Origin: Eikenella corrodens
GTDB lineage: Bacteria > Pseudomonadota > Gammaproteobacteria > Burkholderiales > Neisseriaceae
NCBI RefSeq assembly: GCF_003990355.1
Contig: NZ_CP034670.1
Location: 1,396,690-1,428,689 of the forward strand
DNA: 32,000 bases
Direction of reading: 5' to 3'
The notes beneath the pieces are model-generated. The model worked only from the letters and a program-made list of their open reading frames with translations, was not told the origin of the DNA and searched no databases. Positions 5,545-15,388 of this stretch are shown one piece after another. Every line of letters starts with the position of its first letter. Position 1 is the stretch's first letter. The translations under genes were made by a program, and so were the position numbers.

Positions 5545-5736
5545 TTAGCTCATGCTAAGCGGTATTGTAGCCGAATTCGGTGCCGATAGCGAAAGCCCTT
5601 TGCTTCCTTCTTCGGCGGCTGGCCTAGGTACGGCTGCATAGGCTTGGCTGCCTACGGCGGCCAAGGTAGTGCCCAACAGGGCAATTTTGCTTGATTTTGA
5701 TTTCAACATTTCAAAAGTCCTTAATGGTTTCGCCAT
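5545..5736 (-). pseudogene. 5' remnant of the major coat protein gene fused to unrelated flanking sequence
   Basis: The first 37 codons (MAKPLRTFEMLKSKSSKIALLGTTLAAVGSQAYAAVP) are identical to 11952..12182. The sequence diverges exactly at the array boundary (5626), and the hydrophobic anchor is lost. Confidence 0.8.
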
Positions 5737-5905
5737 CGCCTCACGTGTACGCTATACCGCTTCCACGTGTGGCGTTGGCGTGCCCCTTTCGGGGCAGGCT
5801 GCGCCGCTGAAAACAGAGATTTGGCCGGCGGCGTTACGACCAAATAAAGAAATGGTGGGAGTGTTTACAGGGCTAGAAGGCACACCCCCGAAGCCTTAGA
5901 AATGG

Positions 5906-6187
5906 CTAACAGGTTTCATCCTGATAAAACACATAATCCTTATAAGCCCCGACTTGTACCTTGATTCTTACCACCTGATCGCGTTTGTACTGTTCGTACA
6001 ACGCGGGATTCTTGGTGCGAACAGAAAGCACTTGAGTGCCACTATTTTCATTACGAACCAGCAAGCCGACATGGTCGCTTACCGTCTCCGTGCCATCATC
6101 ACGGCGGCGGCGTTTCTGGAAAACGCGGTCAAACAAACCAACAACATAAAAGCCTTGTTTCATTTCAGACATAAAAGCCCCTTTCAT
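5906..6187 (-). CDS. Small protein in the gpV (ssDNA-binding) position, copy A
   Basis: 93-aa ORF whose start overlaps the Rep stop (ATGA). It sits between Rep and the coat gene. The function is assigned by position only. Confidence 0.55.
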   Translation of the reverse strand: MKGAFMSEMKQGFYVVGLFDRVFQKRRRRDDGTETVSDHVGLLVRNENSGTQVLSVRTKNPALYEQYKRDQVVRIKVQVGAYKDYVFYQDETC

Positions 6188-7260
6188 GCAGCCAATGGCT
6201 GCGAAGTTTCGAGAAAATCACCAAATGCCAAGATTTGGTGGCGGTTGAGGAATGCCCACTTACTGCCGATAGCATCCCGTAAAAAATCGTCGTAATCGTC
6301 CGTATCCATGCGGTGGGGCAGAATGCGCCCACGCTTTAAACTGGACTGTTTCAAATAATCTTTAAACGCCAAAAACCATTGCTTCAGGCATTCGCGCCAA
6401 TGCCGAGAACCAGCAGAGACAAAGGAAAAACAGCTATTGGCGCGTTTCCATTCCTGCTTCTTGTCCATGGAACAGCGAACCAAGCGAAAACCCTTGTGTT
6501 CAGGCTTGCGCGCCGCCAAGGATTTGCCGACATACTTCGCCACATAGGCAGCAATGCCCTTCGCCCCGCCTTTGATAGGTACGACCTGAAAACGCCCGAA
6601 TCCGTAGGCTGGCAGACGCTCGCGCCACAGCTTCCACAAGGCACGCAGCCGAGGGCTGGCGCTTGAGTAATCGCCGTTTGCCACTGCCTGAAAATCAAAT
6701 CCCGTGCGGCAGTCAAAACCGAGATTGACGACAAAATGGAAATGGATACGACCTGACTTATGCAGCTCGAACACACCCACATAGCCTTCAATCTGATGCC
6801 GCAGGAAATTGCTGTTCAGGCTGTTGAAACGGCGAGATGCTTCGCGCGGGTCGGTAACATGGTCGGGGAAAGTCAGGGTAACGAAAGCGCAGTTATCGAT
6901 ACCGTAGGCATCAATCAAACCGTGAATGTTCATTTCCAACGCAGCAGCAGACTTTCTACCGCTGGTTGAAAATTCCTGCGTTTCTTGGTGTGAAAAATCG
7001 TGGAAATAAACGGGGGGAACTTGTTCAGAAATTGAATTGTTACTATTAAGACAAGGAAGGGTCGCTGCGCTTCCTGCGGAAGCTCCGCGCCCCCCTGCCG
7101 CGGCTACCGCGCAGGCATCACAAACGCGGCTGTCAGCAGCAAAGTGCATCAAATCGTGATAGGTATCACATTGAATGCAGCGGCGGCGGTTCAGCATATA
7201 ACTGCCGTTGGCACTTATATGCTGCACCTTACCTGTTTGACGGTAGAGCGGGGCGGTCAT
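6184..7260 (-). CDS. Rolling-circle replication initiator (HUH/Rep, gpII/RstA-like), copy A
   Basis: Carries motifs FVTLTF, HFHFVV (HUH) and AAYVAKYVGK (catalytic Tyr). The track ORF extends to 7311. The ATG at 7260 overlaps the upstream stop (ATGA) and is the likelier start. Confidence 0.8.
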   Translation of the reverse strand: MTAPLYRQTGKVQHISANGSYMLNRRRCIQCDTYHDLMHFAADSRVCDACAVAAAGGRGASAGSAATLPCLNSNNSISEQVPPVYFHDFSHQETQEFSTSGRKSAAALEMNIHGLIDAYGIDNCAFVTLTFPDHVTDPREASRRFNSLNSNFLRHQIEGYVGVFELHKSGRIHFHFVVNLGFDCRTGFDFQAVANGDYSSASPRLRALWKLWRERLPAYGFGRFQVVPIKGGAKGIAAYVAKYVGKSLAARKPEHKGFRLVRCSMDKKQEWKRANSCFSFVSAGSRHWRECLKQWFLAFKDYLKQSSLKRGRILPHRMDTDDYDDFLRDAIGSKWAFLNRHQILAFGDFLETSQPLAA

Positions 7261-7478
7261 GGCAGCAACCCCGTTTCTATGAAACGCTGCCCTTCGAGAT
7301 GGGCGCAACAATAGCCGTAATCGCGCCCGATGGTTTCGCCATCAAGCCCGATTATGGGCTGTTGCAGGGGGTAGGATAGAAACACGCTGCCACCGACAGG
7401 AACGCCGCTGTCGTAGCAGACTAGATGCCATTCGTCGCCGTAGAGACAAACGGACACGGAGCGGTCAGCTTTAGCCAT
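7257..7478 (-). CDS. Hypothetical phage protein (73-77 aa), copy A
   Basis: ORF translationally coupled both upstream (8-nt overlap) and downstream (ATGA). No recognisable motif. Confidence 0.5.
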   Translation of the reverse strand: MAKADRSVSVCLYGDEWHLVCYDSGVPVGGSVFLSYPLQQPIIGLDGETIGRDYGYCCAHLEGQRFIETGLLP

Positions 7479-7725
7479 TACCACCCCCAATAAAGTTGTG
7501 TCCCATCATGCAGGCTTGTTCAAAGCCTACATCAAAGGTTGCGCCTTTATGATTAACCCATTCGGAAGGGAAGAAAGTAGAAAAGCAAATCTTGCCGTCT
7601 TCTTTGAAAACGACCTCGTAGCCCTCGATGTCATCGAGCGCTACGGGGAGCAGGTGGGAATCGGTGCGTTTGCGGGTGGTGTTGCTGATTTCGAAAGTGC
7701 GGAGAGTGCTAGAGGAGGAATTCAT
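7471..7725 (-). CDS. Hypothetical phage protein (84 aa), first gene of the replication operon, copy A
   Basis: ORF directly downstream of the divergent operator region. No recognisable motif. Confidence 0.5.
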   Translation of the reverse strand: MNSSSSTLRTFEISNTTRKRTDSHLLPVALDDIEGYEVVFKEDGKICFSTFFPSEWVNHKGATFDVGFEQACMMGHNFIGGGNG

Positions 7726-7742
7726 TTGATAGCCCTTATGTA

Positions 7743-7844
7743 ATTACCTAATTACCTAATTTCTACCAAACATACAATATTTGCCTAAAAATGTAAACAG
7801 GTAATTAAATATTTACCTAAATAGGCCTATATTCCATTACCTAA
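7743..7844. promoter_or_regulatory. Divergent promoter/operator region with reiterated (A/T)TTACCTAA boxes, copy A
   Basis: attacctaa occurs at 7743, 7751 and 7836, and tttacctaa at 7812. ttgcctaaa lies at 7781, and an inverted aggtaatta at 7799. The segment is AT-rich and lies between oppositely oriented operons. Confidence 0.5.
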
Positions 7845-7863
7845 AAACCACAGGGAAACCCAA

Positions 7864-8058
7864 ATGGCACGAGTAGGCACAACAAGCTACAACATCAAAA
7901 TTGATAAGAAACTGAAAATTGAAAGACTTGCAATGGAAGCTAGCCTAAAAGTAGGCAGAACCATCAAATGGACGGAACTCATGGACATTCTTGTTACCGA
8001 ATTCGGCAAAGATGCCCAAGAGATGCTGATTCATCGGGAGCAGGAGAAAAATGCGTAA
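7864..8058 (+). CDS. Small putative ribbon-helix-helix (Arc/CopG-like) regulator, copy A
   Basis: 64 aa. The N-terminal SYNIKID stretch followed by two helices (KLKIERLAMEA and WTELMDILVTEF) fits an RHH layout. The stop overlaps the next start (ATGCGTAA). Confidence 0.5.
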   Translation: MARVGTTSYNIKIDKKLKIERLAMEASLKVGRTIKWTELMDILVTEFGKDAQEMLIHREQEKNA

Positions 8059-14290: not shown

Positions 14291-14309
14291 AAACCACAGG
14301 GAAACCCAA

Positions 14310-14504
14310 ATGGCACGAGTAGGCACAACAAGCTACAACATCAAAATTGATAAGAAACTGAAAATTGAAAGACTTGCAATGGAAGCTAGCCTAAAAGTAG
14401 GCAGAACCATCAAATGGACGGAACTCATGGACATTCTTGTTACCGAATTCGGCAAAGATGCCCAAGAGATGCTGATTCATCGGGAGCAGGAGAAAAATGC
14501 GTAA
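14310..14504 (+). CDS. Putative RHH regulator, copy B
   Basis: Identical to 7864..8058. Confidence 0.5.
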   Translation: MARVGTTSYNIKIDKKLKIERLAMEASLKVGRTIKWTELMDILVTEFGKDAQEMLIHREQEKNA

Positions 14505-14913
14505 TCCAACGCTCATACTGGTAGCCTTGGCTATGCTGGCCGCAGGCTGCACCCGGCAGGAAGCGCAGAACGCCTACCGCCAAAGCGCCCAATCCGTGAC
14601 CGAAGGCATTCAGGAATTCACGTTCAGCGGCAAAAGCCGCGAAGCAGAGCCGATAGGTTCGATTCAGGCTGAATACCCTGAATCGGCACGCTATCAGGGG
14701 CAGGAAGGTACAGTTTGGCTCGTAGTGAAAACCAATGTGCTCACCGGACCACCGCAAGAAGTGAAGCTGGGCAGGACGAGCGGTTTCAAATCATTGGATG
14801 ATGCGGCGATTGCGGCGGCCAAGCGCCACCGCTTCCGCCCGGCACTGTCTGCAGCAGGAATGATGATTGAATCTGAAATCGACGTGCCCGTAGATTTCTA
14901 CCTGAAACGTTAG
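14497..14913 (+). CDS. TonB_C-domain lipoprotein, copy B
   Basis: Identical to 8051..8467. Confidence 0.8.
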   Translation: MRNPTLILVALAMLAAGCTRQEAQNAYRQSAQSVTEGIQEFTFSGKSREAEPIGSIQAEYPESARYQGQEGTVWLVVKTNVLTGPPQEVKLGRTSGFKSLDDAAIAAAKRHRFRPALSAAGMMIESEIDVPVDFYLKR

Positions 14914-14941
14914 GCTACCTGAAAACTCTTTCAGGTAGCCT
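14912..14941 (+). terminator. DUS inverted-pair hairpin inside the phage, copy B
   Basis: Identical to 8466..8495. Confidence 0.7.
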
Positions 14942-14992
14942 TTTTGAATACTGCGCAGACGCTCACTCTTACGCATCCGCGCATTAAACGTC

Positions 14993-15031
14993 ATAATAAC
15001 AAACTATTATTTCATAATACTTTGTTATTAT
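14993..15031. promoter_or_regulatory. 39-bp palindrome before the HTH gene, copy B
   Basis: Identical to 8547..8585. Confidence 0.5.
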
Positions 15032-15032
15032 T

Positions 15033-15362
15033 ATGTTTAATGCCACACAGTGGCTGGACTTGTACAAGTTCCATGCCTGCATTTATTCGGACTATCAACT
15101 AGCCAAACGTTGGAAGGTACCGCCGACCTACATCAGCCAGTATCGAAAAGGACGGTTACGCCTGCCTTTAGCCTTGATATTAGACGTGGCGGAAGTCGTA
15201 GGGGTCGAACCTTTGGAAGTCATTGCTTCGCTGGAGTATCCGCGAGCAAGGGAAAATCATCAGGCACGAATTAAGCGGGCTTATTTCGATGCGCTGATGA
15301 AAACAGTAGTTGATAGAATGGCCGCACAATATCAATCGGGATACCTTCGATATAAACGTTAG
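15033..15362 (+). CDS. HTH DNA-binding protein, candidate repressor, copy B
   Basis: Identical to 8587..8916. Confidence 0.6.
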   Translation: MFNATQWLDLYKFHACIYSDYQLAKRWKVPPTYISQYRKGRLRLPLALILDVAEVVGVEPLEVIASLEYPRARENHQARIKRAYFDALMKTVVDRMAAQYQSGYLRYKR

Positions 15363-15388
15363 TTCGTATAATGTATATTATGTAAAAT
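15361..15388 (+). other. dif: Chromosomal dif site (XerC/XerD recombination site) forming the right prophage junction (attR)
   Basis: AGTTCGTATAA-TGTATA-TTATGTAAAAT compared with E. coli dif GGTGCGCATAA-TGTATA-TTATGTTAAAT. The XerC arm matches 8/11, the centre 6/6 and the XerD arm 10/11. Confidence 0.8.

Follow-up and report, generated by a model that had tools for sequence, protein, structure and literature searches.

We analysed a 32,000-nucleotide stretch of the Eikenella corrodens genome (contig NZ_CP034670.1, positions 1,396,690 to 1,428,689; below, the window, in whose coordinates all positions are given). It carries filamentous-phage (inovirus) DNA between glyA (serine hydroxymethyltransferase; 4161-5411, minus strand) on the left and the TldD gene (15500-16951/17053, minus strand) on the right. 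The phage-derived DNA spans 5626-15373, and these 9748 bp amount to 1.51 units of 6446 bp; the remainder of the window consists of housekeeping genes. We assign a probability of about 0.82 to the reading developed here, namely that the locus is a 1.5-copy, partly decayed filamentous-phage insertion exactly in dif, the dimer-resolution site of the chromosome, on which the host recombinases XerC and XerD act.

An offset scan of the window found 5626-8927 and 12072-15373 to be 100% identical over 3302 bp at an offset of 6446, with just one long run of identity at that offset. The recurrence reported in an initial annotation is thus exact. The array does not consist of whole units: there are 1.51 of them, and on the left it ends within the coat gene. 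Neither the unit, as had been noted initially, nor the whole window holds an integrase, transposase or secretin: hidden Markov model (HMM) searches assigned all open reading frames (ORFs) of the unit to other families, and tblastn with an IS110 transposase of the Neisseria Nf phage type gave noise only, leaving no sign of an IS110 remnant. Rfam and tRNA scans of the window were empty, which rules out a tRNA-targeting element. The features of the array are as follows (copy 1 counterparts in brackets).

5620..5625: deletion junction, a 6-nt filler (TGGCCT) between chromosomal DNA (last base 5619) and copy 1
5626..8927, minus strand: copy 1, truncated, identical to 12072-15373
8915..8942, plus strand: attP-type junction of copy 1 and copy 2, AGTTCGTATAA TGAACG GTTTCGGTAGT
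8928..15373, minus strand: copy 2, full length at 6446 bp; collinear with the intact prophage L107 and with L004, a circular contig of 6.5 kb
8928..9254, minus strand: structured non-coding region with a conserved core at 9068-9232
9255..10400, minus strand: Zot/pI assembly ATPase gene (PF05707, 1.4e-32; phrog_197, 1.2e-47; ORF 9525-10400)
10397..10681, minus strand: pVI-like minor coat protein, DUF2523 (PF10734, 3.5e-8; phrog_1242)
10678..11590, minus strand: pIII/TspB-like adsorption protein gene, frameshifted (PF05616 C-terminus, 3.2e-6)
11599-11703, minus strand: 34-amino-acid (aa) hydrophobic ORF, assigned by position to the pVII/pIX place (region 11599..11942)
11667-11942, minus strand: p91, small hydrophobic ORF at the pVII/pIX position (phrog_12382, 1.5e-12)
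11952..12182, minus strand: major coat protein with signal peptide (PF05356 Coat_B, 1.6e-9; phrog_7106)
12352..12633, minus strand (5906-6187): p93, candidate single-stranded DNA (ssDNA)-binding protein, following Rep and homologous to an Nf-type ORF
12630..13706, minus strand (6184-7260): HUH rolling-circle Rep (PF23343 REP_ORF2-G2P, 2.7e-11; phrog_3419)
13703..14171, minus strand (7257-7725): p77 and p84, small leader ORFs, kept in Eikenella relatives alone
14172..14309 (7726-7863): divergent control region between the modules, placed by gene layout
14310..14913, plus strand (7864-8495 with the terminator): p64, TonB_C lipoprotein and terminator
14497-14913, plus strand (8051-8467): TonB_C-domain lipoprotein (2.9e-12; lipobox LAAGC)
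14912-14941 (8466-8495): terminator of inverted uptake sequences after the TonB_C gene
15033..15362, plus strand (8587-8916): XRE/CI-type helix-turn-helix (HTH) regulator, 109 aa (phrog_4441, phrog_638)
15361..15388, plus strand: attR, regenerated chromosomal dif, AGTTCGTATAA TGTATA TTATGTAAAAT

Attachment sites and chromosomal flanks

Written at the crossover, attR reads AGTTCGTATAATG|TATATTATGTAAAAT (15361-15388), and this 28-mer is unique in the window. The dif site of N. meningitidis MC58 is AGTTCGCATAATGTATATTATGTTAAAT (PMC2731167); the two agree at 26 of 28 positions, and both variant bases are known from other beta-proteobacterial dif sites (PMC2731167). Empty versions of the locus were found by homologue search and contig look-ups. 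Seven contigs of close relatives (TldD 96% identical) have tldD, a 520-nt spacer and glyA, and the exact attR 28-mer occurs in 7/7 of the spacers. Aligned to these empty sites, the left flank of the window matches up to 5619 and the right flank from 15351, and the 238 nt immediately left of dif in the empty sites are missing from the window. This alignment places the phage DNA exactly at dif and shows what a deletion has taken: attL, ~3.1 kb of copy 1 and, on the chromosomal side, 238 bp. A TldD search of genome contigs returned, among the matches listed, mostly Burkholderiales, and one Neisseria locus without dif nearby. Look-ups of the exact protein sequences of Zot, TldD (with two choices of start) and GlyA gave no match.

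In the 'empty' spacers of contigs L095-L101 (e.g. L095 11555-12074), a stretch of 40 nt lying ~100 nt to the left of dif has 87.5% identity to part of the HTH gene of the phage (8622-8661), and the XerC arm of their dif is of the phage type, with T at position 7. The stretch resembles what an earlier element, since decayed, would have left behind at this very site.

The junction between the two copies (8915-8942) has the anatomy of an attP. Its XerC arm is perfect, its central region equals dif in the first 2 nt only, and its XerD arm is degenerate: GTTTCGGTAGT matches TTATGTAAAAT at 4/11 positions, or at 5-6/11 with a 7-8-bp spacer. Compared with the dif central region TGTATA, TGAACG here and TGTGCG in L107 share 2-3 nt on the XerC side and 3/6 overall. 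The same attP motif lies where the circle of L004 closes (6527 bp, ends overlapping by 30 nt; ~78% nucleotide identity to the unit, same gene order) and at the tandem or circular junctions of L108, L112-L114 and L118-L120.

Relatives supply the attL that is deleted in the window, and with it the element attP plus hybrid attL and attR that mark an IMEX (integrative element exploiting host Xer recombinases; type definitions were taken from an Xer review and the XafT paper). One intact prophage with both ends present lies in the 99-kb Eikenella contig L107: attL is AGTTCGCATAATG|TGCGGTTTCGGTAG (also given as AGTTCGCATAATG|TGCGGTTTCGG) and attR is AGTTCGTATAATG|TATATTATGTAAAAT. The parent of each arm can be told from a C/T difference in the XerC arm, and the central region goes with the partner on the XerD side, which puts the crossover where XerC cleaves. 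The finished genome of Kingella negevensis (CP123448.1) contains five head-to-tail copies of a 6116-bp transposase-less relative; its attL is AGTTCGAATAA|TGAGCA..., its attP AGTTCCAATAA TGAGCA TTTATGATGAG and its attR AGTTCCAATAA TAGCGA TTATGTAAAAT. Segregation at these junctions is the same as in L107, with G/C marking the arms. Further attL/attR pairs were found in the IMG/VR contigs L121 and L134.

The surroundings of these relatives vary. In L107 (3163-10358) the neighbourhood differs from that in the window, with adh_short on the left, PALP on the right and tldD 6.7 kb further; the difference identifies the 28-mer itself, not a particular locus, as the target, and the terminus region is evidently rearranged between strains. 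The Kingella array (L115-L117, ~464.2-494.8 kb) lies between narG and a DUF2726 gene and is bounded by hybrid dif-like junctions, and its internal attP has a 13-nt insertion relative to attL.

Gene content and defects of the two copies

HMM searches placed the ORFs in inovirus families (Zot, Coat_B, DUF2523, TspB C-terminus and a G2P-type HUH Rep), in agreement with the initial annotation. With Zot, a signal-peptide coat protein, an HUH Rep and the order Rep-SSB-coat-pIII-pVI-pI (SSB, ssDNA-binding protein), the unit would by its genome belong to the inoviruses (Tubulavirales), and its 6446 bp fit their genome size of 5-12 kb. Successive minus-strand ORFs overlap by 4 nt in ATGA-type fashion according to their coordinates, which bears out the translationally coupled module described initially. 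Rep has HUH (HFHF) and YVAKY motifs and is ATGA-coupled to the ORF upstream. In the coat sequence a signal peptide precedes an acidic N-terminus, a hydrophobic core and a basic C-terminus, as in a small inovirus coat protein with one transmembrane helix, and p91 is kept at 29-41% identity in all Neisseriaceae inoviruses compared. p93 is 45-54% identical to the ORF at the same, post-Rep position of Nf-type prophages. Its label as 'SSB-like' derives from position and from this homology; the fold adds a weaker hint, in that a low-confidence single-sequence AlphaFold model (pLDDT 56) has weak top matches to the Ff gene V protein, a resemblance that this model can only suggest. HMM searches gave no family matches for p77 and p84.

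Neither copy is complete and intact. Copy 1 retains an N-terminal coat fragment, p93, Rep, p77 and p84, all three genes of the divergent module (p64, TonB_C and HTH) and the XerC arm; attL, Zot, pVI, pIII, p91 and the coat C-terminus are gone. At its left end, ORF 5545-5736 fuses the initial 37 residues of the coat protein to chromosomal sequence. Copy 2 is full-length and carries two lesions. In Zot, CAA has changed to TAA at codon 292 (9525-9527), where L004 has CAA (Gln) and a 380-aa product; the residual 89 codons (9255-9524) are still in frame and match positions 318-386 of phrog_197 Zot, and Zot is intact at 379-380 aa in L004, L107 and L108. The adsorption-protein gene has a +/-1 frameshift near 11215-11230 that separates a Cys-rich piece with signal peptide (11195-11590) from one with Gly/Asp/Lys repeats and the TspB C-terminal anchor (10678-11250). 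The 'Cys/Gly-rich pIII-like pair' of the initial annotation is therefore a single frameshifted gene, since the protein is one ORF of 320-332 aa in L004, L107 and L108, to which the window matches in two frames. Given the nonsense codon in Zot and the frameshift in pIII, copy 2 is predicted to yield no virions. Both copies are intact over the duplicated 3.3 kb (Rep, p93, regulators and TonB_C lipoprotein), and the array has two identical Rep/origin regions in direct order.

With copy 1 a deletion remnant lacking attL and the full copy doubly damaged, this is no functional phage array, and any 'lifestyle' applies to the intact relatives (L004, L107) and not to this locus. None of the loci compared was near-identical (best 80-92% nucleotide identity). 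Imperfect 6/12/18-nt periodic repeats at 10943-11064, downstream of the frameshift, encode the Gly/Asp/Lys-rich linker of the adsorption protein and are a likely hotspot for length variation.

The divergent module had been described as RHH (ribbon-helix-helix), lipoprotein and HTH. The last two assignments hold, as a TonB_C lipoprotein and an XRE-type HTH regulator; the first is unsupported, as the sole match of the 64-aa p64 is phrog_2503, of unknown function. The p64 protein (14310-14504) is 100% identical to that of L004 (869-1063), where neighbouring genes reach just 75-90%, which suggests either recent exchange of this small gene or very strong constraint. A TonB-like gene is annotated also in the saliva inovirus OR148983, and there is none in the Kingella relatives; as a matter of speculation, the lipoprotein may be an accessory for superinfection exclusion or a receptor decoy. 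A promoter scan gave one promoter-like site in the control region, on the minus strand (14243-14215), not above chance. The stop codon of the HTH gene abuts the XerC arm. HTH_3 and Phage_CI_repr matches occur across the HTH family, which is confined to dif-integrated Eikenella and Kingella inoviruses, and an AlphaFold2 model of the regulator (pLDDT 82) matches XRE/Cro/CI folds alone.

In the non-coding region 8928-9254, the gene-sense strand folds strongly as ssDNA (z = -5.1). Its core (9068-9232, minus strand) is common to dif-type and transposase-type Neisseriaceae inoviruses (L002 2883-3047, L003 1113-1293, L004 6183-6352, L118, L119 and L121), saliva inoviruses included; it has an invariant CCCGCGCGGCGTCGCAAGTGAGACT, and the flanking hairpins keep their pairing via compensatory changes. 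The element is a candidate packaging signal or minus-strand origin. The conserved right arm of attP, AACGGTTTCGGTAGTT (8928-8943), pairs with the uptake-sequence-like AAGCTACCTGAAAAACC (9040-9056) in ssDNA folds of either strand, and the AACGGTTTCGGTAGTT/AAGCTACCTGAAAAACC stem closes a multi-hairpin domain.

The terminator after the TonB_C gene is an inverted pair of the host 12-mer AGGCTACCTGAA, of which a third, 10-mer copy lies at 9044 in the non-coding region. We take AGGCTACCTGAA to be the AG-eikDUS dialect of the E. corrodens DNA uptake sequence (DUS). The dialect and its host are on record, in a text that does not state the sequence (PMC3630211). The window has 38 copies of AGGCTACCTGAA and 0 of the Neisseria DUS (AT-DUS), and TldD is 96% identical to a metagenomic cluster and 88-90% to Eikenella species; on these counts and identities, 'Eikenella-like' was a correct description of the genome. 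Elsewhere in the window, 59-nt inverted repeats with uptake-sequence motifs (20561-20619 and 21804-21862; 98% complementary) bracket ruvB (20725-21756).

Route of integration

As the unit encodes no integrase or transposase of its own and is inserted precisely in the host dif, host XerCD is by far the most likely integrase. The dependence on XerCD that the initial annotation had deduced is thus strongly supported. We propose that this 6.4-kb inovirus is an IMEX and that its double-stranded replicative form, with a single dif-like attP, would be paired with chromosomal dif by XerC and XerD. Strands would be exchanged at the XerC cleavage position. The second exchange would probably be omitted, because central homology is confined to the XerC side and the XerD arm of the phage has degenerated, and the junction would be resolved by replication, as for VGJphi and CTXphi. 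The product would be a dead attL and an intact dif at attR, open to further copies and thereby to head-to-tail arrays. A later deletion, ending inside the coat gene, would have cost copy 1 its late genes, along with attL and 238 bp of the chromosome, and the surviving full copy would then have acquired the Zot nonsense codon and the adsorption-protein frameshift. In its present state the locus would express at most the regulators, the TonB_C lipoprotein and Rep. By analogy with CTXphi arrays, Rep may perhaps roll out unit-length ssDNA circles between the two Rep/origin regions, which would carry both lesions; virion assembly and export would be impossible without a helper. In intact relatives, export may, again by analogy, pass through a host secretin. 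The probability given at the outset also covers this account as a whole, a decayed 1.5-copy IMEX inovirus array at dif together with its proposed mechanism.

Among known systems, exchange by XerC alone followed by resolution through replication, as in VGJphi, appears to be the best fit. VGJphi is likewise a filamentous phage without recombinase, with a single double-stranded dif-like attP, central homology on the XerC side only and an XerC-side crossover, and it too regenerates a functional dif, allowing arrays and further integrations. In contrast, VGJphi has a recognisable XerD arm, which is degenerate here (4-6/11), and differs in host family and in all proteins. The Kingella-type relatives come closer, with an XerD arm of 8/11 if a 7-bp spacer is assumed.

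Several points limit this reading or weigh against it. The degenerate XerD arm, unlike that of VGJphi, resembles TLCphi and the gonococcal genetic island (GGI), and the order of exchange could differ. A full two-strand exchange followed by heteroduplex segregation would give the same junctions in half of the progeny. The XerC and XerD genes lie outside the window, and dependence on them is deduced. Cumulative GC skew does peak near the array, but its signal is noisy. The frameshift may be a sequencing error, the nonsense substitution less likely so. Finally, the layout of 1.5 copies is that of the assembly.

The XerD arm invites comparison with TLCphi, where XerD would act first, independently of FtsK and activated by a phage factor; the candidate here would be the HTH regulator beside attP, as an analogue of XafT. 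Both TLCphi and the GGI integrate at dif through a good XerC arm and a degenerate XerD arm. Moreover, all Eikenella and Kingella members have the HTH gene directly beside attP, its family is restricted to dif-integrating phages, and XafT itself is an XRE HTH fused to DUF3653. We nevertheless consider this route unlikely. TLCphi and the GGI keep a dif-like central region; the phage does not, and the absence of homology on the XerD side disfavours an XerD-first exchange. The central region also segregates with the XerD arm at the junctions, as for an XerC-side crossover. DUF3653 was found neither in the HTH protein nor in its 19 close or 71 distant homologues, which match XRE, Phage_CI_repr and DUF3693 instead, and the predicted fold matches Cro/CI/XRE repressors only. 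The GGI is, in addition, a 57-kb type IV secretion island and not a phage. An identity of the HTH protein with XafT was discarded on similar grounds: there is no DUF3653 in any ORF of the unit or in the 90 homologues, and the fold is that of Cro/CI/XRE. A literature search for DUF3693 found no papers.

That the XRE/DUF3693-related HTH protein is a non-DUF3653 factor for Xer activation or site selection, serving an attP with degenerate XerD arm, strikes us as a long shot. If true, such a factor might act in trans elsewhere, e.g. at the dif-like site of the GGI, whose integration factor is yet unidentified (PMC6744903).

Misassembly, e.g. a single prophage mis-joined with reads of the replicative form, could in principle produce the layout; copies 100% identical over 3.3 kb are hard for assemblers, and the deletion-junction sequence has no match in JGI metagenome contigs. 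This is quite improbable, as the left junction is a unique sequence in the coat gene with a 6-nt filler and a coincident 238-bp chromosomal loss, which repeat collapse or expansion would not make. The internal junction is, moreover, an authentic attP as in circular and tandem relatives, and the finished Kingella genome also has a tandem array.

CTXphi and its satellite-type element RS1 show several parallels: an Ff-like gene order ending in Zot, a repressor gene beside the attachment site, XerCD integration at dif and tandem arrays in which a member may be limited to replication and regulation, a member that truncated copy 1 resembles by content. Phage production from the chromosome by CTXphi/RS1 needs tandem copies with two Rep/origin regions, the arrangement found here. 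The differences are that no ssDNA forked-hairpin attP and no toxin cargo were seen, and that copy 1 is a deletion remnant ending in the coat gene and not a defined satellite. Integration by the CTXphi route, in which two inverted half-sites of the ssDNA genome come together in a forked, dif-like hairpin that serves as the substrate, and which would be irreversible and make phage production dependent on tandem copies, has hardly any probability: the region beside attP is strongly structured as ssDNA, but a search of the whole window that allowed 1 mismatch found no second, inverted XerC arm, the ssDNA fold leaves the XerC arm unpaired, and a plain double-stranded attP already explains attL and attR. 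A folded attP of the CTX type was accordingly rejected, for want of the inverted half-site and of pairing in the XerC arm.

Relatives and significance

Among the closest known systems are the Neisseria filamentous prophages of the Nf/MDAphi/NgoPhi6-9 type (represented here by L006-L014). They share with the unit Rep (45-47% identity), the next small ORF (45-54%), the gene order, p91, a TspB-type C-terminal anchor, DUF2523 and Zot (29-32%), and saliva inoviruses of the Nf type share its non-coding element. They differ in carrying an IS110-family (Piv-like) transposase after Zot and in occupying varied chromosomal sites; here the transposase is absent, the divergent p64/TonB_C/HTH module and attP take its place, and insertion is at dif. 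All Rep homologues at 45-47% examined in Neisseria (N. cinerea, N. sp. ZJ106 and others) belong to the Nf type with IS110 after Zot and lie at varied loci, which upholds the contrast drawn initially with the Neisseria phages. The 45-54% identity of Rep and the SSB-like ORF to those of IS110-bearing phages indicates that the integration module has been swapped within a shared replication and structural core.

Among deposited phages the nearest are saliva inoviruses (OR148969 and others; Zot 50%), which carry transposases. A search of the phage collection with the whole unit gave short matches only, and Rep had no relative among deposited phages except for a weak match to Microviridae VP4. The same lineage is present in IMG/VR as 20 contigs (e.g. 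IMGVR_UViG_3300011982_000236, _2690315926_000001, _3300011936_000047 and _3300008346_000045), with several cut precisely at the 13-14-nt repeat of the XerC arm, and the Logan contig SRR27355736_4305 belongs to it too. These members are 81-89% identical in HTH and 82-95% in Rep, with the same gene order and attP. The entries come without a described integration mechanism, and their late genes, unlike those in the window, are intact where gene calls exist (L004, L107 and L108).

Kingella was listed among new inovirus hosts by Roux et al. 2019 (PMC6813254). Our literature search found no paper on dif/Xer integration of a filamentous phage in Neisseriaceae, nor on any Eikenella filamentous phage; as far as we found, the GGI is the only Neisseriaceae IMEX or dif user described previously. 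The initial annotation had gone further and proposed a lifestyle different from the known. CTXphi, VGJphi and TLCphi already follow this IMEX strategy, which is familiar from Vibrio and Xanthomonas; only the host and the detail are new.

For the genome itself, the message is of a decaying prophage at the terminus and not of an active phage. For the family, the locus documents recombinase-less dif integration of Eikenella and Kingella filamentous phages through empty sites and both types of junction. Paired with the Nf/MDA type, the dif lineage would form a clean natural swap of integration modules, having attP and an HTH regulator where the Nf/MDA type has its IS110 transposase. Its attP joins a VGJ-like central region to a TLC/GGI-like XerD arm, and may serve as a substrate for asking how much of the XerD arm XerCD needs.

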